Source: Escherichia phage M01. Taken from it: 45,294 nt of DNA. This document shows positions 2,689-35,600 of the stretch, in pieces (within the stretch, counting starts at the first letter, position 1; each line of letters opens with the position of its first letter). The stretch lies in the sequence record OR061069; one strand, given 5' to 3'. Made by a program: the position numbers and the translations under genes. The notes under the pieces are model-generated. The model did not search any database. It had not been told where the DNA came from and saw nothing but the letters and a program-made list of their open reading frames with translations.

Positions 2689-4159
2689 ATGTTAACTATG
2701 AACGGTCAGAATCAGGGTGTTAAGACAAAACACCGGGAATGGCTGCATCACTTCGATAAATGGCAGAAGGTGCGCCACGCACTGGAGGGCGACCTTATCC
2801 GCTATCTGCGCAACGTCGGGAAGAACGAACCTGACCCCATCTACGCAGCCCAGCGCCAGGAAGAATACGAGAACGGCGCTATCTGCTACAACTTCACTAA
2901 ACGCACCCTGGCCGGGATGGTTGGTAGCGTCATGCGCAAAGACCCCGAACAGATTATCCCGCCTGAGCTTGAGTACCTGTTACGTAACGCCGACGGTTCG
3001 GGTGTAGGGCTGTGGCAGCACGCTCAGGATACTTTGATGGAGATTGACTCAGTAGGTCGTGGCGGGTTGCTGGTGGACGCCCCGGAGACAGCCGCGGCAA
3101 CGGCAGCCGAACAGAATGCGGGACTACTAAACCCGGTCATTGCATTCTATACCACAGAGAACATCATCAACTGGCGACTGACCCGCATCGGTTCAGTGAA
3201 CCGCGTGACGATGGTCGTGCTGCGCGAGGTGTGGGAGTACTCGGAGCCGGGCGCAGAGTTCGAAACCAAGTTCGGTGAGCAGTATCGCGTTCTCGATTTG
3301 ATTGACGGGCGCTACCGCCAGCGCATTTACCGCTTCGATGCCGAAGGTGGTGGCTAATGGTGAAGTAATCGAAATATTCCCGGAACTTGGCGAACAGTTA
3401 CGCGGCAAAATCCCGTTCACGTTCATTGGGGCAAGCAACAACGATGCGACCATCGACGATGCGCCTTTGCTGCCGTTAGCTGAGCTTAATATCGGACATT
3501 TCCGCAACAGCGCGGACAACGAGGAATCCAGCTTCGTTGTAGGGCAGCCCACTCTGTTCATCGCCCCTGGTGAAAACATGAGCATGGAACAGTGGAAAGA
3601 AGCCAACCCTCACGGCGTCCGCACGGGGTCGCGTTCAGGCCACAACATTGGTTACGGCGGCAATGCGTTTCTGGTTCAGGCAGGGGAGAACAACCTCGCC
3701 AAACAGAACATGCTGGATAAAGAGAATCAGGCGATTCAGATTGGTGCGCAGCTTATCACCCCGACGCAGCAAATCACCGCTGAATCGGCCCGTCTGCAAC
3801 GTGGTGCTGATACTTCAGTTATGGCAACAATCGCACGTAACGTAAGCATGGCGTACACTGATGCGCTGCGCTGGGTGGCTGCGATGCTTGGGCTGCGTGA
3901 AGGCACAGAGATTGAGTTCAAGCTGAATATGGAGTTCTTCCTGCAACCGATGACCGCTCAGGACCGTGCTCAGTGGATGGCGGATATTAACGCGGGTCTG
4001 TTACCGGCTACCGCTTATTATGCTGCGTTGCGCAAGGCAGGTGTAACTGACTGGACGGACGAGGACATTCAGAACGCTATTGAGGACGCACCTCTGCCGT
4101 TGGGTGCTGTTACTCAGGTGGCTGGAGAGATTCCGCAGTCGGCGCAACAACAGGAGTAA
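2689..4159 (+). CDS. portal protein, frameshift near 3300-3357
   Basis: about 490 aa across two frames; position after terL. Confidence 0.7.
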
Positions 4160-4165
4160 ATAGAA

Positions 4166-4195
4166 AGGCCCCTTAAGGGGCCTTATCTTTTCTTT
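4166..4195. terminator. bidirectional intrinsic terminator
   Basis: aaggcccc-ttaa-ggggcctt hairpin with flanking T-rich tract; between convergent genes. Confidence 0.6.
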
Positions 4196-4475
4196 ATACA
4201 AATATGAATCCATTGCTGGAAGAGGTGTATCGGGTGGTGCCGTTTTTCGTTTCGGGCCAACAGATATATGAGCGACCATGATACTCTACCCACCAAAGTT
4301 CTACATCGGCATCCCCATTAGGTCGCGTCAACCACCCGTGGTGCAGCCAATACTTGCGCCCTATTTTAAATATGCCTTCTTCGCATGAAGGCCTGCAACA
4401 GGCGACGCACTCTACTTGAACACCATCAACATGCACACATGTCATATGTAAATTACTGTTTGAATATTTAGCCAT
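4194..4475 (-). CDS. Cys-rich hypothetical protein (possible zinc-binding), moron-like
   Basis: 93 aa minus-strand ORF inside plus-strand late operon; RBS aaggaa; TATAAT 4521-4526 on minus strand upstream. Confidence 0.45.
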   Translation of the reverse strand: MAKYSNSNLHMTCVHVDGVQVECVACCRPSCEEGIFKIGRKYWLHHGWLTRPNGDADVELWWVEYHGRSYICWPETKNGTTRYTSSSNGFIFV

Positions 4476-4508: not shown

Positions 4509-4533
4509 GAATAGTACCCTATTATATTGGTGT
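4509..4533. promoter_or_regulatory. conserved 25-bp element copy A (gaatagtaccctattatattggtgt)
   Basis: near-identical to 6259-6283 and 16027-16051; IR aatag-tacc-ctatt; minus-strand reading gives TATAAT. Confidence 0.55.
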
Positions 4534-4583
4534 CTGCAAATATTATTTTTATGCGTTACACTGTCTATACTACAGGAGGGCTT

Positions 4584-5631
4584 ATGAGCTTACTTACATC
4601 CCTAATCAGCCACCAGATATGGCTACAACGCGCCGCATCCGGTGAAGTGAAAGACCTCGCACCGTTTATTAAGGAGATGCGGGACGAAATCAAACGGCAG
4701 GTGCTGTTATTCGGCGACGACGGGCGAAGCACTGCGCGACTGAATAAACTGTTACGCGACCTCGAAGAAGCACTGACAGGGCTTACAGGTGACTGGCAAA
4801 CAAAGCTGACAGAAGACCTTAAGGAACTGGCGGCGTATGAGGCGGAGTGGAACGTAAAGGCACTGACCGCCAACGTAGACGCGGAGTTTGTTACACCTAC
4901 CGCCGAACAGGTGTGGGCTGCTGCCGAGTTTCAACCGCTCTCATTGAGCGACAAGCCTGTTGATTTCTCTAAGCTGATGACCGGCTGGGGCGAAACAGAA
5001 GTCGAGCGCCTGGTAACCGGCGTTAAGATGGGCTTTGTACAAGGCCAAACCACACGGCAGATTGTTAAGAATGTCGTAGGCGCTGGCGGACTGGCCGACG
5101 TCTCTGAGCGTAACGCCGCTACCGTCATCCGCACCGCGCTGTCCCACGTGTCTAACGAAGCCCGTAACGAGACGTACCGCCAGAACGAAGACATCATCGA
5201 GAAGTACGAGTGGGTGTCGACGCTAGACAGCCGTACCAGTACGATTTGCAGAGCCAGAGACGGAATGACGTGGGAAATCGGTAAAGGGCCGATGCCGCCA
5301 GCCCATCCGAACTGCCGAAGTACGTGCACTGCACCTGTAATCAGTTCAGAGTTCGATTTCCTGGATAAAGGTGCAAAGCGAGCGGCTAAAGGTGCGGACG
5401 GCGGTACTCAGGTAAGCGCAGACACCACCTATTACGAGTTCCTGAAGCAACAACCGTCGTGGTTTCATCGATGAAGCGCTCGGCCCGGTGCGAGGCAAGA
5501 TTTTCCGTAACAGCGGTATATCACCGGAAGAGTTTCGCGTAATATCTGTAGATGGTTTCGGGAATCCGCTGACGCTTAAGCAGATGGCGGAACTCGATAA
5601 ACGTGTTGCTGATTATCTGAAAGGGGAATAA
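4584..5631 (+). CDS. head morphogenesis protein (SPP1 gp7 / Mu F-like), frameshift near 5460-5475
   Basis: RBS aggaggg before ATG 4584; C-terminal part continues in another frame to TAA 5629-5631. Confidence 0.65.
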
Positions 5632-6091
5632 TGATGGGCTTTTCAAAGTAACTGATGTACCGTCACGTCGCGTAGTCCAGTTTGCTCGTGTGTCAGGCTC
5701 CGGTGAGAACGTGGTGTCTATTGGGGATGAAAGTGTACTGGGTACGCCGGTAGATGATATGCCGTTTGCAGATAAAACCGGTATTGCGTTACCCGCGGCG
5801 GGCATGCTTTATGAGATTCCGTATCTGGCGGACGCTGGCGATGTGTATTTCTCTGTGCAACCGAAAGACGCTGAACTGGTTGACGGCAGCGCGACTATCA
5901 CTGTCGAAGTTAAGGCAGGTAAAGCGCCGTATACGCTGACCTGGTACAAAGACGGTAAGGAAGTAGTAAACGCCCCGGAAGAGGCTTTGTCTCTGACGGT
6001 TAACGCGGTGGGTGAATACTTCGTTAAAGTCACCGATGCCGATGGAGTAGAGGCGGTAAGTAAAGCGGCGAAGGTTACGAAGCCAGAATGA
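5631..6091 (+). CDS. Ig-like domain protein (possible capsid decoration); ATG 5631 frame broken at T4 run 5640-5643, alternative GTG start 5690
   Basis: Ig-like motif PYTLTWYKDG; frame 2 open from 5621 with no ATG. Confidence 0.5.
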
Positions 6092-6094
6092 TAA

Positions 6095-6122
6095 AAGGCC
6101 CCACTATGGGGCCTTATTTTTC
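6095..6122. terminator. bidirectional intrinsic terminator
   Basis: aaggcccc-actat-ggggcctt then TTTTT; A-tract upstream. Confidence 0.6.
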
Positions 6123-6258
6123 ATCAAAGTTCACCATTCCCGCTGACTCTGCGTCCTCGACCCGCGCTAACAGCCCACACAAACAATCCTAAATTAACCA
6201 GTAACACAAATGAAATTGCGTACCATCAGTAACTTCACCTCCACTATCACGTTTTACT

Positions 6259-6283
6259 GAATAGTACCCTATTATATTGGTGT
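6259..6283. promoter_or_regulatory. conserved 25-bp element copy B
   Basis: identical 25-mer; minus-strand TATAAT at 6271-6276. Confidence 0.55.
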
Positions 6284-6336
6284 GCGCAAACTATTTGTTT
6301 ACGTATTCCGGTTATTCCACTCGAATTGTAAATGTT

Positions 6337-6385
6337 GGAATAAACTATTCGAATAGTTGACTTTTCACCAAAAATGTGCTAAGCT
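6337..6385 (+). promoter_or_regulatory. sigma70-like promoter with upstream box (TGTTGGAATAA-N2-TATTC; -35 TTGACT 6357-6362; extended -10 TGcTAAGCT 6377-6385)
   Basis: 17-bp spacer; palindrome ctattcgaatag 6345-6356; same box recurs at 7119-7142. Confidence 0.45.
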
Positions 6386-6563
6386 CCACCTGAGCTTGTG
6401 AAGTATGAACAAGCGACCGCGGCGTGGCAGGTAACGGAGCCGGACGTTAAGTCCGAGTGTAGTTACGCTGACGCGTTCGGAAGGGCCATACTCTATTGCT
6501 TGTGTAAAAAGTAACTGGGTTTACTGAGATTACGCCGTTTCTATGTTTAAATGATAAGGACTA

Positions 6564-6590
6564 GCGCCCCGCTTTAAGGCGGGGCTTTAC
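6564..6590 (+). terminator. intrinsic terminator-like hairpin in leader upstream of Rz
   Basis: stem gccccgc/gcggggc, loop tttaag, then tttacttat. Confidence 0.4.
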
Positions 6591-6609
6591 TTATCGAGAA
6601 AGGGGAAAC

Positions 6610-7019
6610 ATGAATCTTAAAGCAACTGTCGTAGCAGGAGCATGTTTCATCATCCTGGCTTACGCACACGGCATCTACCAGTACCGCAGCTGGCTGGAAC
6701 GAAGGCCAGCGCGAATCTCGTTTCGCAGCAACAGCAGAAAGCACAGGCTGAGTTAGCGAAGAAAACACAACGGCAGCAGCAGGACGAATCAAAGGCCGCC
6801 GCCGCTGACAACGAAGGCAAGACGAAATCAGAGGTGATTACCCGTGAAGTCGTTAAGTACATTAAAACGCCTGGTCGCAGCGTGTGCACTTTTGACGATG
6901 CTCGCGTCCTGCTCAAGTCCCGCGCCGTCGCCAACGCCAATTCCATCTCCGGATACGACGATGATGCAGCCACCGTGCAAGCTGGCGCACGCCAAGTAGT
7001 GACGCGGACGAGGACTTAG
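6610..7019 (+). CDS. Rz: i-spanin (Rz-like), frameshift near 6700-6756
   Basis: N-terminal TM segment then Q/A/K-rich periplasmic domain; lipoprotein ORF embedded in +1 frame. Confidence 0.55.
6844..6999 (+). CDS. Rz1: o-spanin (Rz1-like) lipoprotein embedded in +1 frame of Rz
   Basis: GTG start; signal peptide with lipobox LASC; Pro-rich mature part with C-terminal Cys. Confidence 0.6.
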   Translation: MKSLSTLKRLVAACALLTMLASCSSPAPSPTPIPSPDTTMMQPPCKLAHAK

Positions 7020-7092
7020 CTATTGACGTTCAGAACGCCGAATGCGTGCGGCAACTGCGTCTGAAAGTGTTCATGTTGCAGGACTACGTGAG

Positions 7093-7165
7093 GAATATTC
7101 TGGAATAGTTGCCTTGCATGTTGGAATAATTTATTCTTGACATGTAAATCCGGGTGGCCCGGATT
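7093..7165 (+). promoter_or_regulatory. upstream regulatory region of scaffold/capsid operon (second GGAATAA-N2-TATTC box, TTGACA 7137-7142, 8-bp hairpin 7146-7165)
   Basis: box shared with 6337-6362; no clear -10 found. Confidence 0.3.
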
Positions 7166-7190
7166 CCAACGTCCAGGGGACATACTGACT

Positions 7191-7892
7191 ATGAATCGTT
7201 TTTTACGTTATCCGTTCCAGGAAGAAGCTGGAGCAGAAGATAAAGCCGGTGGCGGTGACGCGCCGAAAATGTTCACAGCCGAAGAAGTTCAGGCGCTGAT
7301 TGAGAAAGAAGTTGCCGGGCTTAAGGCCAATCAGGAAGCATTGCTGGCGGAGAAGAAAGAAGCCGCTCGCAAAGCAAAAGAGGCTGAAGAAGAACGGCAG
7401 CGCGCACACCAGGAGGCGTTAAAAGCCGCTGGTAAGATGGACGAGTTTGAAAAGACGATTCGTAGCCAGTATGACCCGGTGTTAGCCGAGAAAGATGGTC
7501 GCATCTCCAAAATGGCAGAGCGCATCCTCGGCAGCGAACGTAAAGCGGTGTTAGGCTCTTTCGCGGGTGACTTCATCACCCCGGAAGCAGTGGACATTCT
7601 TGCGCCGTTCGTCAAGACTGAGTTCGAAGGCGATGATGTGGTTACTAAGTTTGTCGGCGCAGACGGCAACGTAATCACGACTGACCCGGAACAGTTCCGC
7701 AAATACCTGCGCGAACACAAAGCGTTTTCGCATTTGATTAAAGCAAATGCAGCTTCCGGCGGCGGGGCTTCCGGTAGCAAAGGCGGCGGGGCCGCACCAG
7801 CGTTTAAAGACATGAGTGAAGCGGAGCGTTTAGCTCTGTATAAATCGAACCCTGCCGAATTTGAGCGGCAACTTAAAGCCCTGAGGAAATAA
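7191..7892 (+). CDS. scaffolding protein (putative)
   Basis: charged coiled-coil-like sequence immediately before major capsid gene. Confidence 0.55.
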   Translation: MNRFLRYPFQEEAGAEDKAGGGDAPKMFTAEEVQALIEKEVAGLKANQEALLAEKKEAARKAKEAEEERQRAHQEALKAAGKMDEFEKTIRSQYDPVLAEKDGRISKMAERILGSERKAVLGSFAGDFITPEAVDILAPFVKTEFEGDDVVTKFVGADGNVITTDPEQFRKYLREHKAFSHLIKANAASGGGASGSKGGGAAPAFKDMSEAERLALYKSNPAEFERQLKALRK

Positions 7893-7894
7893 TA

Positions 7895-8946
7895 ATGGCA
7901 ATTACCACTATCGGCGATATCGTAACTGGCAACATCCCGGTCCTGGCGTCTTACATGACCGAGGACCCGGTAGAAAAAACCGCGTTCTTCCAGTCTGGTA
8001 TTCTGACCCCGACTCCATACGCTGCCGAGATTGCCCGCGGCTCGTCCAACATCGCTAACATCCCTTTCTGGAAAGCGATTGATACTTCTATTGAGCCTAA
8101 CTACTCGAACGACGTATACCAGGACATCGCAACCCCGCGTAACGTGCAGACCGGCGAGATGATGGCGCGCGTTGCATACCTGAACGAAGGCTTCGGCCAG
8201 GCAGACCTGACTGTAGAACTGACCAGTCAGAATCCGCTGCAATCCGTAGCGTCCCGTCTGGATAACTTCTGGCAGCGCCAGGCGCAACGCCGTCTGATTG
8301 CTACCGCGCTCGGTCTGTACAACGACAACGTAGCCGCTGACCGATGAATACCATACGCAGAACGATATGGTTGTCGACGTGTCCTGCTTCTCTGGGCTTC
8401 GACGCTGGCGCATTCATCGACGCTACCCAGACTATGGGCGATGCGCTGATGGGCAACGGCGGTGAAGTGCTGGGCGCTATCGCGATGCACAGCTTCGTTT
8501 ATGCGCAGGCGCGTAAGCAGCAGCTTATCGACTTCATCAAAGATGCTGACAACGACACCCTGTTCGCCACCTACCAGGGCTACCGCGTGATTGTTGACGA
8601 CAGCATGACCGTAGTTGGCTCCGGCTCGAGCCGTAAGTTCATCTCCATCATCTTCGGCAACGGCGCTATCGGTTACGGTGAAGGTAATCCGTCCAACCCG
8701 CTGGAATACGAGCGCGAAGCATCTCGCGGTAACGGCGGCGGTGTCGAAACCCTGTGGACCCGTAAGACCTGGTTGCTGCACCCACTGGGCTACAGCTTCA
8801 CCAGTGCGGTAATCACCGGCAACGGCACCGAGACTGTAGCCCGCTCTGCTTCCTGGCAGGACCTGGCGAACGCCTCCAACTGGAACCGCGTTGTTGAACG
8901 TAAGCACGTACCGATTGCCTTCCTGGTAACTGGTGTTGGTGCTTAA
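7895..8946 (+). CDS. major capsid protein, frameshift near 8340
   Basis: about 350 aa across two frames; follows scaffold; terminator hairpin after. Confidence 0.65.
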
Positions 8947-8962
8947 GGTTAAGCTTATAATC

Positions 8963-8993
8963 GAGAGGGACTTCGGTCCCTATTTTCATTTAT
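8963..8993 (+). terminator. intrinsic terminator after capsid gene
   Basis: agggac-ttcg-gtccct then T-rich tract. Confidence 0.45.
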
Positions 8994-9008
8994 TAAGAGG
9001 ATTCCTTA

Positions 9009-9351
9009 ATGGCAGACGTATTGAAACGACGCATCACCGGCGTCTCCGCTGACGCCCCGGGTGCTAAGATTGATATGGCGACTATTTCTCCTGCGTCTTT
9101 CTCTACCCCACTTAACGCTACTACCTAGGTTGCCGCCGGACGAGACTATGACCCTGACCGTCGCAGTAACTGGCGGTCTGGAGCCATATTCCTATCAGTG
9201 GTACAAGAACAACAACGCCATCACAGGAGCAAACGCTGCCTCCTATGCTAAAGCGTCGACCACTACCGCCGATTCTGGCACGTATAAAGTGGTTGTTCAC
9301 GATGTGTATGGTAATATTATCTCCAGCAGCACTGTAGCAACTGTGTCTTAA
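9009..9351 (+). CDS. Ig-like domain protein; N-terminal 39-aa ORF (frame 3) joins Ig-domain frame near 9120, alternative ATG 9148
   Basis: motif PYSYQWYKNN paralogous to 5690-6091. Confidence 0.4.
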
Positions 9352-9388
9352 TACAAACGGCCCTTCGGGGCCGTAATAAGGAAAGGTC

Positions 9389-9568
9389 ATGGCAGATAAT
9401 TATGTAATCCGCGAAAAGTACACCCACGTTGATGTTGTTGACGGTCAGGTGATGCCTGTTCGCGGTGTTGTAGAAGCGGATGAACTGGTTGCAACCCAAC
9501 CGGACAACGAAGAAGCGCACAACAACGGCGGTGGTGCTAAGCGTCGTCGCCGTAAGTCAGAGGATTAG
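9389..9568 (+). CDS. hypothetical small basic protein (59 aa)
   Basis: ATG 9389 after hairpin 9359-9376; stop TAG 9566-9568. Confidence 0.3.
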   Translation: MADNYVIREKYTHVDVVDGQVMPVRGVVEADELVATQPDNEEAHNNGGGAKRRRRKSED

Positions 9569-9571
9569 GAC

Positions 9572-9724
9572 ATGAATATCATGCGGCGCTTGCTCTGTAC
9601 CCACAAATACCTAACGGTAAGAGTCGCGTATGGTGACGAGATAATTGGTAGAAATTACAAGCGATACTGCCAAGAGTGCACAAAATGCGGCGCAATCAGA
9701 TACGTGGGTGGTGATAAATGTTAA
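9572..9724 (+). CDS. hypothetical Cys-rich small protein (zinc-ribbon-like, 50 aa)
   Basis: C-x2-H and CxxCxxC spacing; overlaps next gene start. Confidence 0.3.
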   Translation: MNIMRRLLCTHKYLTVRVAYGDEIIGRNYKRYCQECTKCGAIRYVGGDKC

Positions 9725-10227
9725 TTGTAGAAACAGGCCAAATTATAGAGGGGGCCGATTCGTACATCTCATTAGCGGACGCCCGCGCGTTAGCGGCTAA
9801 TTATGGTCTGGAGTTACCCGCCGACGATACTGCCGCAGAAGTAGCCCTGCGCAATGGTGCTACTTATGTCGGGCTTGCAGAGCCGCAGATGTGCGGTCGT
9901 CGTGTATCCGCTGAACAGTCTCTGGCATACCCTCGTACCGGTGTTACGTTAAACGGATTCCCGGTAGCGGATAATGTTATCCCGAAACAGGTGATTCTTG
10001 CGCAGGTAATCGCCTCCGCCACATATGGCGCCGGCACGGAAGTGCGGGCCAACTCTGACGGTCGTTCCGTGCAGACTGAGCGTGTTGAGGGCGCAGTCAC
10101 AGTGACATACTTCAACAACGGCAGCAGTGGCGCTACGACCGCGATTACCGCCGCGGACGACGCCTTACGCCCGTTACTGTGTGGTGGTCTTAACAATGGC
10201 TTCTCATTTAATGTGTACCGGGGTTAA
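9718..10227 (+). CDS. virion structural protein (putative head-tail connector)
   Basis: position in late operon; 169 aa. Confidence 0.4.
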   Translation: MLIVETGQIIEGADSYISLADARALAANYGLELPADDTAAEVALRNGATYVGLAEPQMCGRRVSAEQSLAYPRTGVTLNGFPVADNVIPKQVILAQVIASATYGAGTEVRANSDGRSVQTERVEGAVTVTYFNNGSSGATTAITAADDALRPLLCGGLNNGFSFNVYRG

Positions 10228-10229
10228 AA

Positions 10230-10844
10230 ATGGCGAAGACTAAATCAGAGATGTTCACCCTCATCGGCGCGAATCTCCCCGATAACACCAACGGTGCCAT
10301 CACACCCGCGAAGCTACGCGAGGTAATGACGCAGATGGCGGACTCACCTATTTACGCCACTCCCGGTGTTAAAGAGGTTGAAGTTCTCCGCGCAGCGTCG
10401 ACCGTGATACAAGTGCCCACCGCAACGAACACGGCGTTGCAGTTAACTTTTGGAGCTGCACAGGGTAGCGCATCCGACCCTGTAATGATTAATGCCGCGG
10501 GGCTGGTTACGTTCAACACCGCGGGTAACTATGCCGTTCGCATCAAGTTACAGGCTGGGCGCACGGGGGCTAGCGGAACGTCTATCCTGCTATCACGCCT
10601 TCTTCTGAACGGCGCTCAGTACGGCTCGCCCGCCGCTACTAAACTGGTTAGCGCCGATACCACAATCCCGATTGAGTCTCGCGTCGTTATTAACCCGACC
10701 GCAGGCCAGACGTTTGCCGTTCAGATTATGCGGGATAGCGCCGGGAGTAACTTCGGCGGCGTATACCCGCAAGCGGCTACGGTAACTGCATGGGGCACAG
10801 CACCATCTGCGCTACTGGTTATTTCGAGACTGGAGGCTGCGTAA
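10230..10844 (+). CDS. virion structural protein (putative)
   Basis: 204 aa; position in late operon. Confidence 0.4.
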   Translation: MAKTKSEMFTLIGANLPDNTNGAITPAKLREVMTQMADSPIYATPGVKEVEVLRAASTVIQVPTATNTALQLTFGAAQGSASDPVMINAAGLVTFNTAGNYAVRIKLQAGRTGASGTSILLSRLLLNGAQYGSPAATKLVSADTTIPIESRVVINPTAGQTFAVQIMRDSAGSNFGGVYPQAATVTAWGTAPSALLVISRLEAA

Positions 10845-10975
10845 TGCGAAAAATAATTAATATGTGGATTAACTCTGATTTTTTGTGGAAGTACGAATTT
10901 TTGGTATCAGTGTTTGCGCTGGTATCAACAACAGCTCTAATTATATTTTTAGCGGTTTGCGGGGAGTCAACATGA
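10844..10975 (+). CDS. small hydrophobic membrane protein (43 aa), AT-rich insert
   Basis: ATGA overlaps on both sides; single TM segment; local AT-richness. Confidence 0.35.
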   Translation: MRKIINMWINSDFLWKYEFLVSVFALVSTTALIIFLAVCGEST

Positions 10976-11331
10976 GCACCGCTTTCAGCAAACGTATGCA
11001 GGGCGTGGGTACACGCCTGCTAACCAAATTCGGCAGCACAGTATCTCTGGTTCGCGCTGGCTCGAAAGTGTGGGATGAAGTTCTCGGTGAATGCGTCTGG
11101 TCCGCCGACGAAGTGTTGCCTTTGAAGGCCGTTCCGGTTCCGGTAAACGCGGGGCTGGTTAACGGTGCGACGATTCAGGCTGACGACATGATTGTTAAAG
11201 CGGATTACAGCGTCGTTCCGAAGATGGAAGACAAGGTGCAATTCGGCGGCGAGCAATGGTCTGTCGTAGCTATCGAGAAGAAGATGGTTAACGATGATGT
11301 CGTGGCCTACTTTATCCAGGTGAGAAAATGA
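10972..11331 (+). CDS. head-tail joining protein (putative)
   Basis: 119 aa; position. Confidence 0.4.
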   Translation: MSTAFSKRMQGVGTRLLTKFGSTVSLVRAGSKVWDEVLGECVWSADEVLPLKAVPVPVNAGLVNGATIQADDMIVKADYSVVPKMEDKVQFGGEQWSVVAIEKKMVNDDVVAYFIQVRK

Positions 11332-11828
11332 GTTTCGCGCTTGATGTCTCTAAGTTCGTCGAAAAGGCGAAGAAGAATCCCGAGAAGGTGATGCGCCAGG
11401 TGTCTATCAAGCTGTTTTCCGCTATCATAAAGGCGAGTCCGGTAGATACTGGTCGCTTTCGTATGAACTGGATGGCCTCTGGCGGTACTCCTGCTTCCGG
11501 TACAAGTCGCGGTACTGACCCTAGCGGAGCGAACGCAATAAGTGCTATGGTTTCTACCGTGTCGGGTTTACCCGACTGGAGCGAGTTCACCCTGACAAAT
11601 AACCTGCCGTATGCGGAAGTTATAGAGTTCGGAGGTTACGCTACCGGCTTCCACGGCCCTAAGCGCCCTTCTAACTTAGGCTCTAAATTTGTTGGCCCAT
11701 TGAGGCCGAAAGCGCCCAGCAGAACAACCACAGACGGATATTCCCTTCAGGCTCCGCAAGGTGTTGTCCGGGTTAACGTTCAGCGATTCAATAAACTGCT
11801 CGAAGAAGAAGCGAGGAAGTATAAATAA
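11328..11828 (+). CDS. HK97 gp10-like tail component
   Basis: motif PVDTGRFRMNW. Confidence 0.55.
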   Translation: MSFALDVSKFVEKAKKNPEKVMRQVSIKLFSAIIKASPVDTGRFRMNWMASGGTPASGTSRGTDPSGANAISAMVSTVSGLPDWSEFTLTNNLPYAEVIEFGGYATGFHGPKRPSNLGSKFVGPLRPKAPSRTTTDGYSLQAPQGVVRVNVQRFNKLLEEEARKYK

Positions 11829-12241
11829 TGGGCTACTTTGAGGACTTAACCAAAGCGTTTGATGTGCCGCTGGTAGCCTTCGGAACAACCAACGGCATCA
11901 AGGTGGCGCTTGAAAACATCGACGCGCCGACGTCAACCGATACACCGTATCTGGCGAGTTACATGTTGCTGGCAGATACGGAACAGGCTGACTTATTCTT
12001 CACCGAGCAACGTTCTGGTATTTATCAGGTCGACATTAACTACGCATCGGTGAAAGGTAGCGCGCCAATCAATAAAATGGCAGACTTACTTAACACGGCG
12101 TTTAAAGCAGGTAAGTCATTTTCACGTAACGACATCTGCGCCGAGGTTCAATCGGTTAGCCTGGGGCCACTGATTGTAGAAAACGGATGGGCCAAAAGAC
12201 CATTGTCAATTAACTTTATCGCATTCACCAAGAGGCTGTGA
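11828..12241 (+). CDS. tail completion / terminator protein (putative)
   Basis: position immediately before major tail gene. Confidence 0.4.
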   Translation: MGYFEDLTKAFDVPLVAFGTTNGIKVALENIDAPTSTDTPYLASYMLLADTEQADLFFTEQRSGIYQVDINYASVKGSAPINKMADLLNTAFKAGKSFSRNDICAEVQSVSLGPLIVENGWAKRPLSINFIAFTKRL

Positions 12242-12243
12242 AT

Positions 12244-13410
12244 ATGGCTACAACTCCTTTTAAGGGCGCGAATACCGCGCAATTCTATGTGGCGGAAGTC
12301 ACCCCGGGCGTAACACCGACTAACCCGGTCTGGTCACCGTTGCGTAACACTGGCGGTGTTCCTGCTATCACCCGCGACACGCTGACCTCCAACGAACTGG
12401 ACGGCAGCCGTGAAACTACATCCATCCGCACCGGTAACAAACAGGTTAGCGGTGAATACGCGATCGAGCTTAGCTCGAAAAGCCAGGATGACTGGCTGGC
12501 TGGTGCTTTAGGCTCTACGTGGCAATCCGGTGTTTCCCTGTCCAGTCTGTCGATTACCGTCGCACCGGCAGGCAAGACGTTCACACGCGCTACCGGCAGC
12601 TTTATCACTGACGGAGTTGGGGTAGGCGACCTGATTGCGTTTACCGATTTAACAGGCGATAACGCAAAACCATTTATTGTTACTGCAGTAACGGCTACGG
12701 TTGTTACTGGTGCTGGCATCCAACACACCCTGACCACCGAGACAAAAACTAGTAAGGCTAAAACCGGCGACACGCTGGAAACCGGTAACACGTGTAAGAC
12801 GTTCTCTATCCTTACCTGGTACAAAGGCCAGTGCGGCGGTACTAACGCGTACACGTTAACCAAAGGCGTGGAAGTTTCTGGTTTTACCATCGAACAGGCT
12901 GTTAACGCGATGGTAACTGGCAGCTTCCCATTCATCGGTCGCAGTCAGGAGATTCTCACCACGCCGCCGACCGGTTCCAACTTCTCATCTGTTACTTTTG
13001 GTGATGAGCCGTTTTCTTCGGTTGACGTTTCCGTGTTCGATGGTTCTACGCCGTTGCGATGCGACAGTCTGACTATCACCAACGATAACAGCGCGTCGGC
13101 GCAGTTCGAACTTGGTAACACTAACGTAGCGTTTGTTGAGCGTAGCCGCGCGGCTAACACTTTCTCCATCTCCGGCAAGCTGTACGACATGGCGATGATT
13201 CAGAAGTTTATCAACGAACAGCAGGTAGAGATTAACTCTATTCTGGCGGGGGTAAACGGGGCTATGTCTTTCAGTTTGAAACGCGCAGAGCTTACGGCGG
13301 TCACACCAGAGATTGGCGGACCCGAGTCAATCACTCAGTCCATTGAAGGCCAGGCTACCGGCAACCAGTACCAGTCGTCTATTGTCATCCAGCGTATCAC
13401 CTACCCATAA
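12244..13410 (+). CDS. major tail protein
   Basis: 388 aa, Thr/Gly-rich; sits before the chaperone and tape measure genes. Confidence 0.55.
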   Translation: MATTPFKGANTAQFYVAEVTPGVTPTNPVWSPLRNTGGVPAITRDTLTSNELDGSRETTSIRTGNKQVSGEYAIELSSKSQDDWLAGALGSTWQSGVSLSSLSITVAPAGKTFTRATGSFITDGVGVGDLIAFTDLTGDNAKPFIVTAVTATVVTGAGIQHTLTTETKTSKAKTGDTLETGNTCKTFSILTWYKGQCGGTNAYTLTKGVEVSGFTIEQAVNAMVTGSFPFIGRSQEILTTPPTGSNFSSVTFGDEPFSSVDVSVFDGSTPLRCDSLTITNDNSASAQFELGNTNVAFVERSRAANTFSISGKLYDMAMIQKFINEQQVEINSILAGVNGAMSFSLKRAELTAVTPEIGGPESITQSIEGQATGNQYQSSIVIQRITYP

Positions 13411-13412
13411 AA

Positions 13413-13440
13413 CTAAGGCCCCTGACGGGGCCTTTTTCTT
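13413..13440. terminator. bidirectional intrinsic terminator
   Basis: aaggcccc-tgac-ggggcctt then TTTTT; overlaps stop of minus-strand kinase gene. Confidence 0.6.
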
Positions 13441-13993
13441 ACAAACCTAATTTTAAAGCAATGTCTATAACGTTCGATTTAACATCACCCGGTATGATGT
13501 AGGTATCGTAATCTTTTACACCATCAACGCCATACAGATAACCACGGCTGTCCCCCTCAAATGTATAGCCTTCTCGGTGCAAGCGAACGATTCTTACATC
13601 ATGACCCGCGGCGACGATAGGGGCTACTTCACTGGCGAATCCACCGTCGGACACTACAAAAACTTCGTTGCCGTCTGGCAAGTTTTCAGCAAGATACTTA
13701 CCGAAATAATCATCACCGAATACCGGTTTAATGAATTGCTCAGAAACGGCAATCATGAACTGACGACGGGACAACCCATTAAGAAAACCCTCTGGCTTTT
13801 CTTTCCGTGCCCGGTCGTCGTAGCCGTCGAGAAATTCGCGGTAAGCATCCGGGCCTAACGCTGCCAAAGCAATATCGAACATTGGATTCTTGAAACTGGT
13901 AGTTCCTTTCGCAAAGCCCATTTCTACCAGCGCCATAGCAAGTGTGTCTTTCCCGCAACCCGCCGGACCATTAAGAATAATTACCTTAGCCAT
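13439..13993 (-). CDS. P-loop nucleotide kinase (dNMP kinase-like)
   Basis: Walker A GPAGCGKDT resembles T4 gp1 GVKRSGKDT. Confidence 0.6.
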   Translation of the reverse strand: MAKVIILNGPAGCGKDTLAMALVEMGFAKGTTSFKNPMFDIALAALGPDAYREFLDGYDDRARKEKPEGFLNGLSRRQFMIAVSEQFIKPVFGDDYFGKYLAENLPDGNEVFVVSDGGFASEVAPIVAAGHDVRIVRLHREGYTFEGDSRGYLYGVDGVKDYDTYIIPGDVKSNVIDIALKLGL

Positions 13994-14478
13994 TATTTAT
14001 CACTCCCGTGTGATTTTAAGTGTGTAGAGTTACCGTTACAGTCGTATCCAGTGACAGCGTGTGTGGTTATGCCGAGGCCTCGGAAATGCTTAATTACCGC
14101 CGGAGAATCATCGAATGCACACAAGATTCTCTCCAGCCCGATAGCACGCAACACCTCTTCTTTAATTGCGATGTCTTTTCTGTTGTCGTGTTTGCCGCGC
14201 ATGATTAGCTGATAAAATTCGACGCGGTGGCGCTGCAACCACATTCTGGTTTCTTTTTCTGCATCATCACTACGGCCCGTTAAAATAATAACGGCGTAGC
14301 GACGATTGAGGGCGTTACACAGTTCGATGTTATCTCTAATTGGTTCATCATCTTTGCACGCCATGTTAAAGGGCTTCCACGCCCACGTTTCGTTGTAGTT
14401 ATCTTTCGGCAGCAGGTGCAAACGATGCGTACCATCAGCCAATGTCCCATCTAAATCGAAAATTACAATATCTTTCAT
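13993..14478 (-). CDS. HAD-family phosphatase resembling T4 Pnk 3-prime-phosphatase domain
   Basis: motifs FDLDGTLA, IILTGRSDD and C-terminal DD motif align with T4 Pnk phosphatase recalled from memory. Confidence 0.6.
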   Translation of the reverse strand: MKDIVIFDLDGTLADGTHRLHLLPKDNYNETWAWKPFNMACKDDEPIRDNIELCNALNRRYAVIILTGRSDDAEKETRMWLQRHRVEFYQLIMRGKHDNRKDIAIKEEVLRAIGLERILCAFDDSPAVIKHFRGLGITTHAVTGYDCNGNSTHLKSHGSDK

Positions 14479-15659
14479 CCCAGCATCTCCGGTGAAATAG
14501 TTAAACGTGCGACCTCGCCATATTCGGCGCTATAAGTAATTACATTTGCACTACGGCCTGACATCCATCCGCCGCGGGAGGCGTAGGCATCCTTAGCCGC
14601 CAGGGTGCGGTGTTGCTCAACAATCATGTTACGGCTTTCTACAATCTTTTGATGGTGGAGATGCCCGACATGTGCGTAACTGTACTCGCTTTCGCCGAAT
14701 GCTTTACGGAACTTAGCTATCATAATCGGCTCGACTACCGTCAAACCGTGCATTTATGCCCGTGTGTGAAAGAACAGCGTCGTTTTGCCGTGTTGCACCA
14801 TCTTGTAAACATCCGGCGACGTATCGACGAACACACGAGGCTCGTTGTCGTATAGCGTACTGAACATCTCAGCCAACCAAATCATACCTGATTCGTCATG
14901 GTTCCCTTGCACGATAAGCAGGCGAACATTTTTATGTTTAACCAGAGCCATATCGACAACACGGCGGACCATACGAATCATGTAGCGGACCAGTTTCTGA
15001 TAGCGCGTATCCGCGTCAAGAACATGACCACTCGCTGGCGTAACGGCATCCAGACTATCAAAGTGCGCGAAGTCACCAAGAAGGTTAATAACCCCTGTTC
15101 CCGCATCTGGCGCTTTCTGAAACGCAGCATCAAACCACCGAGAGAACAGGTCTTCTGCAATCTTCATATCCCAGTCATCGCCGCTCTCGTCGGCCCATGC
15201 CAGCATACCGAGATGGAAATCAGACACAGTGTAAAGGTTGAGTAGCTTGTCGTCTCGTTTGGTGCGAACGGCTTTAACAGGAGCAACGGGGGTAATCTCC
15301 GACTTCATGCCCTCGATTACGGCCTTCATTAACTCGACCTGACGTTCCGCATCGGTGTCGGTCTTAACCCATTGCAGTTTAGTGTTGCCTAACTCGTCCA
15401 CAAGTGACGATGTTCCTTTAATCTTGTAGCCATCTGGCACAAGGTGGCTAACGTCCCGCCCGTGGCCTACGCCTTTCTTAGCCAGCTTCGCTTTACGGAT
15501 GCGAATAACGCGGTCTGAGATGCCGTATTTACGGGCGATGTCGATATTCTTCATACCGGCGTTCAATTCTTCCTGTAACTGTTCGTCGGTTATTTTCTTC
15601 CGGGCCATGCTTACTTCCTCGTGTTTAGGATTTGTCCTATTTAACCACAGTGCATTCAT
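14475..15659 (-). CDS. calcineurin-like (Mre11/SbcD-like) metallophosphoesterase with N-terminal HTH, frameshift near 14753
   Basis: motifs SDFHLG, GDFAHFD, GNHD, GHLHH; HTH-like first 50 aa. Confidence 0.6.
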
Positions 15660-15673
15660 TTAAATAAAGGCGA

Positions 15674-16000
15674 CTATTTACTTTCCGCGCCTATCGCCCA
15701 CCCGGTCATCACCATTTGCAGGCGGGTGGCTGTCAGTAGGCTGTAAAACGCGTCTCCGTTTTTCTCTACCGAACGTATTACAGAGTATGTTACGGCTTGC
15801 GGAGGCAGGCCCGATTTACCAACCCCTACGGCAGCCTCACACTCGCGAACGGTAGAGTCCTTAAATGCCTTTACAATAGTAGGGTCGGCTTTATCGAGCA
15901 CACCAGAAGTCATAAGAACAGATTCACTAAATACCTGTTCGCACGGGGACCCAAAAGCAGCAAAAGACATAAACCCCAGAGCTAATACTAATTTACGCAT
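15674..16000 (-). CDS. secreted/periplasmic small protein
   Basis: N-terminal signal peptide; RBS gaggaa; TATAAT 16039-16044 on minus strand upstream. Confidence 0.45.
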   Translation of the reverse strand: MRKLVLALGFMSFAAFGSPCEQVFSESVLMTSGVLDKADPTIVKAFKDSTVRECEAAVGVGKSGLPPQAVTYSVIRSVEKNGDAFYSLLTATRLQMVMTGWAIGAESK

Positions 16001-16026
16001 AATTATTTCCTCAGTAAGTTACAGGT

Positions 16027-16051
16027 GAATAGTACCCTATTATATTGGGGT
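16027..16051. promoter_or_regulatory. conserved 25-bp element copy C; minus-strand promoter of the 13439-16000 cassette
   Basis: minus-strand TATAAT about 40 nt upstream of ATG 16000. Confidence 0.55.
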
Positions 16052-16164
16052 GCGCAAGTAGTGTGTTAGAATAAGTTTGCGCCTAGTGTCGCACACGAAA
16101 AGCGGGTGGTTCCCGTCTGGCGCGTCAACCTTAACTTGTAACCTCTTAACCAAAGGATTAAATA

Positions 16165-25923: not shown

Positions 25924-25950
25924 TAAGGCCCCAAACGGGGCCTTTTCTCT
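25924..25950. terminator. bidirectional terminator between convergent late and replication operons
   Basis: aaggcccc-aaac-ggggcctt flanked by T-rich tracts. Confidence 0.6.
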
Positions 25951-28734: not shown

Positions 28735-29218
28735 CTAACTATAATAGCTCGCTATTAGGTCGTCAACCTGTTTAAACGAACCAACGACAAAAACATTAGC
28801 ACCGCGTTTACGCATCCGCTCATGCTCCCGTAACTGGTGCGGGTCTGGCTTCGTGTTTTCGTCTTTCTTCACCTCGACGAACCAGACGATGCCGCCGGGG
28901 AGAATTGCCAGCAGGTCGGGGGCGCCGGAGCGTCCTTCGTAGGAGAGCTTACGAACGAGGCCACCAATGGCCTCGAATCGGTCTTTGCGTATTTCTGTAT
29001 CTTGCCTTCCGGTGTCACAGCAAAGGCTCCGCATCTGGATTACGCAGGAAGTACGCTTGATAGATGTCGTGTTCCGAATAGTAAACGCCTTTGTGCGTGC
29101 ACCCCGCGCAAACGTCACTGAAGAACCCATCACCCATTACCATGATAAATTCCCATTCTGGCATATCCACCAACGCCGCTAGTTTCTTACTAAATGGCTT
29201 GTTACTCATAATACGCAC
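28735..29218 (-). CDS. VRR-NUC domain nuclease, frameshift near 29030
   Basis: motif GAPDLLAILPGGIVWFVEVKK. Confidence 0.55.
28738..28766 (-). promoter_or_regulatory. sigma70-like promoter with IR in spacer (-35 TTGACG, 17 bp, -10 TATAGT)
   Basis: IR aatag-ctcg-ctatt 28743-28756; overlaps last codons of VRR-NUC gene. Confidence 0.5.
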
Positions 29219-29292: not shown

Positions 29293-29424
29293 TCATTCCA
29301 GCACCCACAGATAAATTGCGATGAACATGCCCAATACGGCTACCATCATGCCGTATTGGCCCTCGTGACAGTAGACACCGGCAGCGAATCCCGCCAGTAC
29401 CGCGATAATCAGTTTACTTAGCAT
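29293..29424 (-). CDS. small membrane protein (43 aa)
   Basis: hydrophobic; ATG just after polymerase stop. Confidence 0.3.
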   Translation of the reverse strand: MLSKLIIAVLAGFAAGVYCHEGQYGMMVAVLGMFIAIYLWVLE

Positions 29425-31628
29425 AACGTTTTAACTCCTGCACCTTCCGCTACAAGAGGGAACCCCTCGGCCCACTCCGGCAATTCGCACATCAATTTTT
29501 CCAGTTCAGCCACCGTGTACTCAGGTAAGTCCGGAGTTTCACAGACTAATCTCATCGTGGACACGAAAGCACGATCGGGTAGCCGTCCGCCCTCAACATT
29601 CAATCAGTCGCATATAGCCAGCAAATCACGGCACAGCGCCTGAATGCAATGTTTTCGCAGAGCTTTGCCGCCGTGGGTGTACAGGGTAGTCCCCACTGGC
29701 GGGTTAACTGGTTTTCACCCTGATACTTGATTCGCACATTCGTGTTTACCCGTCCGTCTTCGTCTGTTTCCTTTGTCACACTAACGCCGATTCCCGGATA
29801 CGAGAGGATGCGACCCGACGGCAACTCCATACACAACCACCAACCAGGAACCTTCCTGCCGGATGAATCAAATTCTACAGTACGCCATATGCGGATAGCA
29901 CGCTACGCCATTCTTGCGCAGATGCGCCCCGCCGCAAAATTCACGACCAGGATTACGAACAGCAGCTAAAATTCCGTCTTTAAGGTCGCGCCAGAAAGCT
30001 ACTGTTTCAGGGTGAGACTCCCGCCACATACGCTTGATAGCGTCGCAGGTACGCCACACTTTCTTATCAAGAATATACGATGGTCGGTCATCCTTTTCAC
30101 CGGGATGTGGCGGTCGCTTTGCTTCCTGAATACGCGCCCACTCATACCCACGTGCGGTAGCAGCCCAGATGTGGTCGGGGAAAGTCCCGTCCATTGTTTT
30201 TGCCATCTCAATAAGGTCAAGACCTAAGTTTTTAGCAAACGTAACGAACGCTCCGACGCCCCCTCATAGCCGAGGCCAAGCTCGCAAGCCTTGCCTATCT
30301 GTCTGATTTCCTTGAAGTTTTTCTTAATATCATCTGGGTCCATGCCAAACATCTTACCCGCGGTTACATAGTAAATATCAACCCGGCGCGGAACGTATCA
30401 AACGCGGTTTCTCCCCAGCCAGCCACGCAAGCCCGCGACCTTCAACGTTAGAGTAGTCAGCAACAACAAACTTATGCCCTTCTTCCGGTATGATGCAGCT
30501 ACGCACGGTAGATGCCGTCAGTTTTGCCACATCGAAACGGCGATGCGCTCGGCCCTTAAGTAACGCTGAAATGCCTTTATCCAGTTCATCATCGTGATAG
30601 TACCCGCGTGCGAGATTCTGCGGCTGGAAGCCTTTACCCGCCCATCGCAGAGTACGTTTTGCCCCGCCATACTGTAAACAACCGCGACGGCGGTCGTCCG
30701 ACGAGCGGCCTAACAGCAGCGGGTTATATTTCGTTGATGCGGTGGACGCGGCCCCGAGGCGCATTTCGATAATCGTGCGGGCGTCGTCAGGTAAATCATC
30801 GTCCGCCAGCAGGTCATGAAGCGTTGACTTCTGCGCGTTGTGGATGCGGTGCGCGGGGGCGAGTTCACGCAGAATCGGCAGAAAGTCTTTACCGGTAAGC
30901 GAGCCGCCGTATTTGCGTTGGGCTTCTTCCTGTAACTGTGCCTTGTGCTTCTCCACGGCTTCAATCGCGGCTTCCGCCAGTGCAACGTCAACCTTAAACC
31001 CACGGTCATTGATTAACTGGTCAAGTTCCAGTACACGGTCCTCGAACTCGGAGTTACCCCAACGCGGCAGCTTATGAAAGACTTCACGCATCGCGGTGAT
31101 GTCGCTCACGGCGTACTTGATGAACAGCGCCCACTCGTCCGGGTGTGTTTCGGCGGTGTAACGGCGGATTTTGTAGTTCTTCGGTGTAGGTTTGGAGAAA
31201 CGCTGAATCAGCGCCTTGCCGCGTTTATCTTTCGCGTTGTCCGCGGATACGCACAAGCACTTCGCACAATGCATCGAGCGACCCCGGCAGCGCGTGACGA
31301 AACGCCCAAATCATCGTATCAATGGTGTTGCTTACCGGAATATCAAAGCCCCAGCAGTGCTTCATGATGAGCCTGTCGAACATTGAGCCGTTGTGCCACA
31401 CCATCTTAATGCGGCTGTTCGGCTTAACCAGGCGGCGTAAGTGCGCGGTGCAAATCACCCGGCATGTCGCTGCTGTCGGTGCAATCCCATACCCTGCACA
31501 GGCTCGTCGTCAAAAGCATAGGTACAGATTAGCACTTCGGTAGTTGGGTGTTCGGCATAAGCGTAGGAGCCGACTTTCTTTAAATCGGCTTCGGAGAATG
31601 TTTCAAAGTCCAGGTATAAGTAGCTCAT
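29418..31628 (-). CDS. family A DNA polymerase with 3-prime-5-prime exonuclease domain, at least five frameshifts
   Basis: Exo motifs LDFETFS and WHNGSMFD; polymerase motifs DYSNVEGR and RQIGKACELGLGYEGG spread over several frames. Confidence 0.75.
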
Positions 31629-32376: not shown

Positions 32377-32405
32377 AATATAATAGCTAACTATTCAGGT
32401 GTCAA
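32377..32405 (-). promoter_or_regulatory. sigma70 promoter with IR in spacer (-35 TTGACA, 17 bp, -10 TATATT)
   Basis: IR aatag-ctaa-ctatt; upstream of SSB gene. Confidence 0.55.
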
Positions 32406-34865: not shown

Positions 34866-35356
34866 TTATTCTTCTTCGAAATACTTGTTCTTGATTGCCG
34901 TCAGGCGCTCCAGGTATTCAGCCAGGTCTTCGTCTTTAATCGCGGCAATCTTCATCTTCTTACCGGTGAACTCCTCCAGCAGTTCATCGGAATCATCGCA
35001 CGCAGCATCACTAGGACCTTCATTAATCGCATCGTCGATGGCCTGAATCTGGTCACGAAGAGACTGGTAATCGACTTCTTCTTTCACTTCTTCCGGTTCT
35101 GGCGTTGGTTCCTCTACTTTAGCTTTACGCTGCTTGCGTTTCGGCTTTCTTCTTCTGCTGGTTGAGTGTCGACGGTGTCTTCACCTTCTACCGGGATTTC
35201 TTTTGTTGTTTTTCGCAACAGTAGGTCTCGATTGTTGCAGTTTCGCGCACCACTGCGACGGATAGCTTCGGCAGTTCGGTCGGCGCACTGTTCGCTGCAA
35301 TAATTTCGTGCGCAACTACGAAACGTTCCAGTAATACTAAGAATTGTCTCTAACAT
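34866..35356 (-). CDS. hypothetical protein with Cys-rich N-terminus and acidic C-terminus, frameshift near 35100
   Basis: two ORFs in adjacent frames. Confidence 0.35.
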
Positions 35357-35390
35357 TTGTTTCTCTCCTGTTTATTTATATTTAACGGTT

Positions 35391-35522: not shown

Positions 35523-35553
35523 TTGTTTCTTTCCTCTCATTTGGTATGGGCTA

Positions 35554-35582: not shown

Positions 35583-35600
35583 TTGGCTTTTCTAAAATAA

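Follow-up and report, generated by a model that had tools for sequence, protein, structure and literature searches.

Repeated promoter-like modules carrying a common dyad accompany mobile accessory-gene cassettes in the late operon of Escherichia phage M01 and its Guernseyvirinae relatives

A repeated element beside the minus-strand units of the late operon

The window studied here is the whole 45,294-bp sequence of Escherichia phage M01 (record OR061069), a Kagunavirus of the Guernseyvirinae, in which packaging, head and tail genes occupy the plus strand from about 1.4 to 25.9 kb. Three minus-strand units are embedded among these genes, and each lies directly downstream of one copy of a short repeated element: the open reading frame (ORF) at 4194-4475 follows copy A, the unit at about 6122-6240 follows copy B, and the block at 13439-16000 follows copy C. 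The core of the element is the 25-mer GAATAGTACCCTATTATATTGGTGT, found exactly at 4509-4533 and 6259-6283 and with a single mismatch (GGGGT) at 16027-16051, as a first-pass annotation of the letters alone had reported. Copies were counted by a mismatch-tolerant search of both strands of the window, and 100 dinucleotide-preserving shuffles gave an expectation of no copy by chance. The same search revealed a further copy, with 3 mismatches, on the opposite strand at 39037-39061 (copy D). The three sites listed by the annotation are thus real, but three is not the total, which amounts to at least five full copies and 6-7 further sites of the internal dyad.

Read on the minus strand, copies A-C give ACACCAATATAATAGGGTACTATTC, which contains both a TATAAT (4521-4526 in A, 6271-6276 in B, 16039-16044 in C) and the dyad AATAG-N4-CTATT (4510-4523, 6260-6273 and 16028-16041, respectively). 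Alignment of four copies extended the conserved block to 31 bp, 6 bp beyond the 25-mer and up to an invariant TTGC, with the consensus TTGCRC-N17-TACTAT(TC), hereafter type 1, enclosing the 14-bp dyad. The information-content profile displays this sharp 31-bp block, preceded by an A/T-rich stretch resembling an UP element and followed by a 5' untranslated region (5'UTR) that is conserved only in part; copies A and D have their 5'UTR, Shine-Dalgarno sequence and start context in common. At their other end, all three cassettes are closed by one bidirectional terminator stem, AAGGCCCC-N3/4-GGGGCCTT. The features are as follows, protein lengths being given in amino acids (aa).

4509-4539, minus strand: type-1 promoter/operator copy A (predicted); TTGCAG 4539-4534, N17, TACTAT 4516-4511; TATAAT 4526-4521; dyad 4510-4523
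6259-6289, minus strand: type-1 copy B (predicted); TTGCGC 6289-6284, N17, TACTAT 6266-6261; dyad 6260-6273
16027-16057, minus strand: type-1 copy C (predicted); TTGCGC 16057-16052, N17, TACTAT 16034-16029; dyad 16028-16041
39031-39061, plus strand: type-1 copy D (predicted); TTGCAC-N17-TACTAT, with CATAAT; ahead of 39094-39312 and downstream plus-strand genes
41159-41189, plus strand: diverged type-1 copy E (predicted); TTGCAC...TAGAAT...TACTATTC; between two plus-strand genes, upstream of 41218-41754
4194-4475, minus strand: cargo A, a 93-aa Cys-rich ORFan; start codon 33 nt past the element, 5'UTR and ribosome-binding site as at copy D
4165-4184, bidirectional: terminator of cassette A, AAGGCCCCTTAAGGGGCCTT
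6122-6240, minus strand: cargo B, homolog of a gene for a 33-37-aa hydrophobic peptide; start broken by indels in the present assembly
6095-6115, bidirectional: terminator of cassette B, shared stem
13439-16000, minus strand: cargo C, a gene block encoding a signal-peptide protein (phrog_14165), an exonuclease, a PNK-type phosphatase and a dNMP-kinase-like protein
13415-13434, bidirectional: terminator of cassette C, shared stem

Cargo A occurs in five Kagunavirus records only, its next relatives (36-41% identity) being encoded by unrelated Wifcevirus myoviruses. At unit B, where a transcript of about 140 nt had been proposed, a minus-strand unit does exist, but it is a damaged small-peptide gene rather than an obviously non-coding one. 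In cargo C the DNA-repair exonuclease/phosphoesterase gene is split by a frameshift (14475-15659), and the product labelled 'transcriptional regulator' in this cassette, tried as a candidate dyad binder, was rejected as the C-terminal fragment of this frameshifted exonuclease (phrog_704). A fourth copy of the terminator stem (AAGGCCCCAAACGGGGCCTT) is found outside the cassettes at 25925-25944, where the plus-strand tail genes converge with the minus-strand replication block.

The element is intergenic in well-annotated relatives. A 37-mer around copy B was retrieved from 150 of 50,697 phage records, all of them Guernseyvirinae, at 1-4 places per record that almost always fall in unannotated intergenic DNA. 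None of 5,426 complete E. coli genomes contains it, and a host regulatory site or a prophage origin was dropped as an explanation on that account. The same sequence has already been listed twice as a repeat found by PHIRE: in phage fBC-Eco01 as tgAATAGTa-ccTATTat-T, with seven copies ascribed to a phage RNA polymerase (PMC9825357), and in phage SGP-C as TAATAGTACCCTATTATGTT (PMC8790156). Both papers list the repeat only, whereas its orientation, its dyad, its association with cargo and the exchange of cassettes are analysed here.

Slots, cargo and cassette exchange among relatives

The places taken by the cassettes were surveyed in 75 IMG/VR loci around the head-morphogenesis gene and in full genomes, slots being measured between tblastn anchors. 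Slot A, between the portal and head-morphogenesis genes, was empty in 40 cases, none of which had the element, and filled in 36, of which 13 had it. For slot B, which follows the Hoc-like gene, the figures were 20 empty (no element) and 40 filled (31 elements), and for slot C, between the major tail and assembly chaperone genes, 7 empty (no element) and 18 filled (13 elements). Altogether, 57 of 94 filled slots had the element, invariably on the strand of the cargo, as against none of 67 empty ones (Fisher p ~1e-18, for phylogenetically related loci). In phage Bas76, for instance, the portal and head-morphogenesis genes stand 36 nt apart, without cassette A or copy A. The view that the minus-strand units are insertions into the late operon is upheld by these empty and filled slots, and the alignment with relatives that had been suggested as a check indicates that element and downstream gene do travel together. 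Insertion between adjacent operon genes, a terminator and presence in some relatives only are the features of a moron; the promoter that would complete this description is predicted from sequence.

Across the 76 instances collected from relatives, 26 unrelated families of first cargo genes follow the element, including a superinfection-immunity protein (Imm_superinfect, PF14373) and an N6/N4 DNA methylase (PF01555), most cargo being ORFans. The best start codon is usually located 23-33 nt after the element (median 25, range 5-69), and nothing else is conserved upstream of the cargo genes. Moreover, copy E is flanked by two plus-strand genes and faces forward, which fixes the direction of the module. 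Together these observations indicate that the element is directed, at copies A-C, towards the minus-strand units, as had been claimed at first sight. As a separate observation, slot A of Jerseyvirus genomes is filled by a gene for a 216-aa amidase with neither type-1 element nor dyad (8654-9304 in skrot, 35004-35654 in Jersey); therefore, not all slot occupants use the shared promoter.

Five cargo families were seen in slot A of one phage and in slot B of another, and slot-A and slot-B copies were aligned for four of these. In three of the four pairs, the copies match continuously at 88-90% identity, the match starting at the terminator and extending past the TTGC end of the element by 5-14 nt, while in the fourth, identity (84-91%) is limited to the two cassette ends; the flanks are unrelated in all four. 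Comparison of empty with filled slot B gives the same boundaries. Judging from this homology, from the empty/filled comparison and from the shared terminator stem, the mobile unit is terminator-cargo-UTR-promoter, with short shared sequences as its ends. The phages encode a single-stranded DNA-binding (SSB)/annealing protein and an exonuclease, which could use such 20-37-bp homologies for exchange. The 'shared mobile promoter cassette' that the first-pass annotation had entertained thus fits the absence from empty slots, the constant cargo strand, the 26 cargo families and the homology extending from the terminator to just past the element.

We consider it probable that the copies are promoter/operator modules for the host RNA polymerase, borne on terminator-bounded moron cassettes and kept alike by recombination, in a manner similar to the promoter-early stem-loop (PeSL) cassettes of T4-type phages. 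The 31-bp module would act as a promoter for host sigma-70 RNA polymerase, driving leftward moron cassettes within the rightward structural operon, at the three fixed slots A, B and C. Each cassette would consist of a bidirectional GC-rich terminator, one or several cargo genes, a short 5'UTR with its ribosome-binding site, and the promoter. Two causes may account for the near-identity of the copies, namely functional constraint on the sequence and repeated homologous exchange of cassettes between slots and between co-infecting phages, in which the promoter block and the terminator would provide short homology arms, as in the PeSLs. Such a scheme would explain why an exact repeat of 25-31 bp is met at three places of the structural operon, a single promoter/operator module being reused as a 'plug' for accessory genes.

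The dyad, its promoter contexts and candidate regulators

Allowing at most one mismatch, AATAG-N4-CTATT occurs at 14 sites of the window, nine of them perfect, compared to a mean of 1.2 and a maximum of 3 in shuffled sequences, and about 12 of the places where it recurs in the genome look like promoters. De novo enumeration of all palindromes with 5-bp arms in five Guernseyvirinae genomes ranked it as the top motif, with 9, 7, 8, 4 and 5 perfect copies, while a lambdoid control genome had one site with one mismatch only, which is the chance level. The central 4 bp differ from site to site. The sites outside the type-1 copies, and the two candidate regulators considered below, are the following.

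28738-28766, minus strand: type-2 promoter/operator (predicted); TTGACG-N17-TATAGT
32377-32405, minus strand: type-2 promoter/operator (predicted); upstream of a gp2.5-like SSB gene
35554-35582, minus strand: type-2 promoter (predicted); TTGACA-N4-AATAG-N4-CTAT|TATAGT, 11/12 to the sigma-70 consensus, dyad in the spacer
35603-35616, plus strand: dyad with 1 mismatch, overlapping the putative promoter of the Cro-like gene
40792-40805, no strand assigned: perfect dyad, orphan site between two plus-strand genes, conserved in phage K1B4
35647-35862, plus strand: 71-aa HTH_3 protein, homolog of 434 Cro (Pfam HTH_3, E 1.2e-12); candidate dyad binder
38410-38580, minus strand: 56-aa HTH_17 (Xis/MerR-like) protein, whose distribution in relatives matches the dyad; alternative candidate regulator

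Two main architectures are found in the window. In type 1 (copies A-E), the dyad spans the end of the spacer and the -10 of TTGCRC-N17-TACTAT. In type 2 (28738-28766, 32377-32405 and 35554-35582), which is restricted to the minus strand of the replication-gene block, it sits in the spacer of TTGAC(A/G)-N4-AATAG-N4-CTAT|TATAGT, a sequence matching the sigma-70 consensus at 10-11 of 12 positions. A third register is displayed by the predicted slot-C promoters of Jerseyvirus (TTGCAT-N17-TATTAT). All architectures combine a TTG-type -35 with a TAnnnT hexamer at a spacing of 17 bp; the dyad, offset from the -35 by 10, 13 or 16, always touches the -10. Since its register varies while this contact is kept, we propose that the dyad is a separable operator. 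The orphan dyad at 40792-40805 has no recognisable -35 or -10 on either strand. A promoter-like sequence on the plus strand at 44378-44420 (TTGACT-N18-TATATT), conserved in Bas76, K1B4, Jersey and skrot, carries the right half of the dyad only (CCCTATTATATT) with a degenerate left half. In the Cornellvirus Salmonella phage PhiSTP1, which has no AATAG dyad, three TATTA-N6-TAATA palindromes (17318, 31655 and 38721) occupy promoter-like positions ahead of reverse-oriented inserts of the structural operon. They may represent a different operator of a diverged regulator; as an alternative operator they were set aside, three sites being too few.

Within type 1, the invariant TTGCRC-N17-TACTAT scores about 7-7.5/12 in all (TTGCRC 3/6, TACTAT 4/6). 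The perfect TATAAT first noticed in the repeat is indeed there, together with the inverted repeat, but it is less likely to be the functional -10, because it lacks a -35 and varies (T/C) at its first position; TACTAT, separated from the invariant TTGC by 17 bp, is the more likely choice and our working -10. Transcription is predicted to start about 7 nt past the -10, that is, at 4504, 6254 and 16022 with TACTAT, or at 4514, 6264 and 16032 with TATAAT. Several other readings of the dyad were discarded. As a hairpin it reaches only -1.9 kcal/mol (z -0.34), and a structural hairpin or terminator was rejected; a known RNA family was dropped, the window having no Rfam match; and the geometry of a T4 MotA box or of a class II activator, compared by eye, has an unsuitable spacing.

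The dyad would overlap the -10 in the cassette promoters and the spacer or the -10 in near-consensus promoters of the replication and early regions. We regard it as most likely an operator for a phage helix-turn-helix (HTH) protein, either the 434-Cro-like gp35647-35862 or the HTH_17 gp38410-38580, which would repress all dyad promoters together by occluding their -10. The binding sites of 434 Cro are dyads of 14 bp whose outer bases are conserved. The ORF at 35647-35862 is homologous to this protein (1zug, E 4.9e-7, aligned residues 6-68), both proteins being 71 aa long, and it stands alone on the plus strand behind a divergent promoter region that contains the dyads 35559-35572 and 35603-35616. 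The HTH_17 protein, weakly matched by MerR_1, shows 84-100% conservation across Kagunavirus and Jerseyvirus. Since it is found only in Guernseyvirinae (442 records) and is absent from the two dyad-less genomes examined, its taxonomic distribution seems to fit the dyad better than that of the Cro-like protein. The P. aeruginosa AlpA antiterminator was considered as an analog of the HTH_17 protein and rejected, as its C-terminal HTH contacts lie at residues 128-142, far beyond a length of 56 aa, and its element is a 6-bp non-dyad. Weighing these similarities, we give the Cro-like protein close to an even chance of being the dyad binder; the HTH_17 protein is a more tentative candidate, and some other protein, or none, is only slightly less likely than the latter. 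Control of all three cassettes by one regulator, as proposed at the outset, would be plausible; the dyad is shared with other promoters, and there are two HTH candidates. RNA-seq of the Kagunavirus K1B4 placed an HTH-domain gene, possibly one of the two candidates, among four early genes, in what is only a coarse three-class scheme of expression (PMC12645636).

Alternative explanations and comparison with known phage systems

Several observations weigh against a host-type promoter repressed through the dyad. The Cro-like recognition helix differs between Kagunavirus (SQGAINQ) and Jerseyvirus (SQSLITH), with 52% identity overall, and yet the half-site is identical; Cornellvirus keeps a Cro-like ortholog (39-41% identity) and yet has no dyads, so that the covariation of recognition helix and operator gives mixed results. 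HTH_17-type proteins, for their part, usually bind direct repeats, not dyads. The forward type-1 hexamers are weak and were missed by a consensus scan, which picked out reverse-orientation hexamers at copies A and C instead. The Fisher test of the slots overstates independence because its loci are related. Finally, the Imm-like gene, which is the first gene after the slot-C copy in K1B4, was classed as 'late' by RNA-seq, albeit in a coarse time course of 5-120 min (PMC12645636).

The reverse hexamers suggest another possibility, namely that the module acts mainly in the opposite (GAATAG) orientation, or in both, as a type-2-like promoter that restarts rightward late transcription after the cassette terminator, with the layout -35, N4, AATAG-N4-CTAT, TATATT and a -35 supplied by the cargo-side sequence. 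Read in this way, copies A, C and D and all K1B4 copies with a 'TCGATA' UTR present type-2-like pairs scoring 8-9/12 (TTGATG-N18-TATATT, GTTACA-N17-TATATT, TCGATA-N17-TATGTT/TATATT), which outscore the forward pairs and fall exactly in the register of type-2 promoters; the TCGATA-N17-TATGTT of copy D points to the minus-strand replication operon. The T/C polymorphism at element position 13 is, in addition, neutral for a reverse TATRTT. However, copies B and E have no reverse -35, nor do copies with the commonest UTR (AAGTTAACTG), and copy E faces forward between two plus-strand genes. Empty slots without the element still keep the downstream late genes and the upstream terminators, and the cargo genes would be left with no conserved promoter, so that we regard this orientation as unlikely, though copies A, C and D and those with the TCGATA-type UTR may fire in both directions. 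Activation in place of repression appears a little more improbable still: the dyad would be the site of an activator or of an appropriated host factor, promoters with a weak -35 would need a phage protein, and the cassettes would be middle or late genes. The type-1 -35 of just 3/6 and the late class of the Imm-like cargo agree with this, as does the fact that MerR-like HTH proteins, to which the HTH_17 protein is weakly related by its MerR_1 match, act from promoter spacers. Against it, the dyad takes three registers relative to the -35, is also contained in promoters of 10-11/12 with an optimal 17-bp spacer that need no activator, and in every architecture covers part of the -10, as is typical of occlusion.

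Two further explanations deny the element a role for host RNA polymerase. The element might be a recombination or mobility site only, such as the target or end of a mobile element or a homing site, with no transcriptional function; cassette boundaries do fall at the element, and the HTH_17 protein is labelled 'excisionase' in relatives. This is very improbable, as no integrase or transposase is encoded, the element only ever precedes the cargo, at a constant spacing from the Shine-Dalgarno sequence and ATG, the hairpin is negligible, and the same dyad is embedded in near-consensus promoters of non-mobile core replication genes. A promoter for a phage-encoded RNA polymerase, as proposed in the fBC-Eco01 paper for the same PHIRE consensus with its list of seven promoters (PMC9825357), would be in keeping with a repeat length of 25-31 bp, similar to T7-type promoters. 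It was rejected as scarcely credible, because no such gene is present: none is annotated in Bas76 (85 coding sequences), in skrot (67 coding sequences) or in the record of the window phage, and every ORF longer than 700 aa has an assignment (tape measure, tail, tailspike, DNA polymerase or helicase-primase). Furthermore, a variable centre and dyad symmetry are unlike the promoters of single-subunit RNA polymerases, and PHIRE merely finds repeats.

A bolder extension, which we regard as unlikely, is that the Guernseyvirinae possess a gene-cassette platform, in which three fixed slots take terminator-cargo-promoter units that are actively circulated, possibly as PeSL-like minicircles or with the aid of the HTH_17 protein, which is 'excisionase-like', specific to the lineage and found together with the dyad. 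If true, it would amount to integron-like acquisition in a virulent phage, the shared dyad placing new genes at once under the early-gene switch.

Among known systems, the preferred reading of host-promoter modules on mobile cassettes comes closest to the PeSLs, mobile regulatory cassettes of T4-type phages (Arbiol et al., 2010, PMC2839356; Comeau et al., 2014, PMC4122927). Both combine a repeated sigma-70-type promoter motif, an A/T-rich upstream stretch and a dyad in or over the promoter, directly before ORFans, and in both there are terminator stem-loops and insertion, deletion or replacement breakpoints at the motifs, implying recombination between short repeats. A single conserved promoter motif ahead of many variable or ORFan genes is what the 76 instances and 26 cargo families display, and breakpoints at the motif are seen in the slot-A/slot-B pairs and in empty versus filled slot B. 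A stable terminator stem-loop in or fused to the promoter, as in PeSLs, was not found here: the cargo stands between the promoter and the GC-rich terminator, and the in-promoter dyad is a weak A/T stem of 5 bp, whose low stability makes it look like a protein operator rather than a terminator. The host genome is here a 45-kb siphovirus instead of a T4-type myovirus, and the cassettes oppose the flanking late operon at three fixed slots, whereas PeSLs populate hyperplastic regions.

Classical morons each carry their own unrelated promoter. Those of lambdoid and HK97-type phages, reportedly described by Juhala and colleagues and by Hendrix and colleagues in 2000, resemble the present cassettes as extra genes with their own promoter (predicted here) and terminator between late-operon genes, present in some relatives and absent in others, and with a cargo often devoted to superinfection exclusion or host interaction. 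They differ in that one promoter sequence is here common to at least 26 cargo families and to core early promoters, and in that the present phage is virulent. The resemblance to the 434 Cro system lies in the HTH_3 homolog and in 14-bp dyads, conserved in their outer bases but variable at the centre, that overlap promoters, including the candidate regulator's own, which has two sites in the divergent region before the gene. The present phage nevertheless has no CI partner or lysogeny module, its sites are scattered over about 12 promoters instead of forming an OR/OL triplet, the half-site is AATAG and not ACAA, and a second putative binder, the HTH_17 protein, fits the taxonomic distribution better. 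The cassettes are thus an example of known phage genome shuffling, with moron- or PeSL-like mobile promoter cassettes and a shared operator, and not a new kind of element.

The idea of promoter-mediated modular shuffling, known from PeSLs, would be extended in this way from T4-type myoviruses to small siphoviruses, and the published attribution of the repeat to a phage RNA polymerase is corrected. Kagunavirus and Jerseyvirus, which are widely used candidates for therapy and biocontrol, gain a map of probable early promoters and a candidate global regulator. Defined slots with ready promoter and terminator arms could possibly serve for the engineering of payloads.

Some observations concern the window as a whole. 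Many frameshifts are apparent, and ORF calls in the present assembly need care since they split several genes: DNA polymerase I is spread over six ORFs (29293-31628; a single ORF in Bas76), and the terminase (1424-2676), the portal ('62 kDa structural protein', 2689-4159), the major capsid (7895-8946) and, as mentioned, the repair exonuclease genes are also split, all of these being single ORFs in relatives such as Bas76. Compared to PQ474795.1 (Escherichia phage vB_Eco_AMO_3701M), which has the same length of 45,294 bp, the window presents 3,204 differences and no indels. These are unevenly distributed, from 0 to 247 per kb with several identical 1-kb bins, so that the window looks like a mosaic or altered version of that record; the element copies are the same in both.

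Close to cassette B, the plus strand at 6357-6592 contains a candidate structured non-coding RNA of about 200 nt, bounded by a promoter-like TTGACT-N17-TAAGCT (6357-6385) and a terminator (6566-6585). Identity over 38 Kagunavirus and Jerseyvirus loci amounts to 94-99%, above that of the neighbouring genes, and the annotated 38-aa ORF at 6398-6514 is broken by one-nt indels. RNAalifold predicted 39 pairs, 5 of them with compensatory changes, for a sequence that has no match in Rfam. The Jersey version of this candidate RNA is shorter, about 126 nt, and retains the common core CGCATTCGGAAGGGCC.

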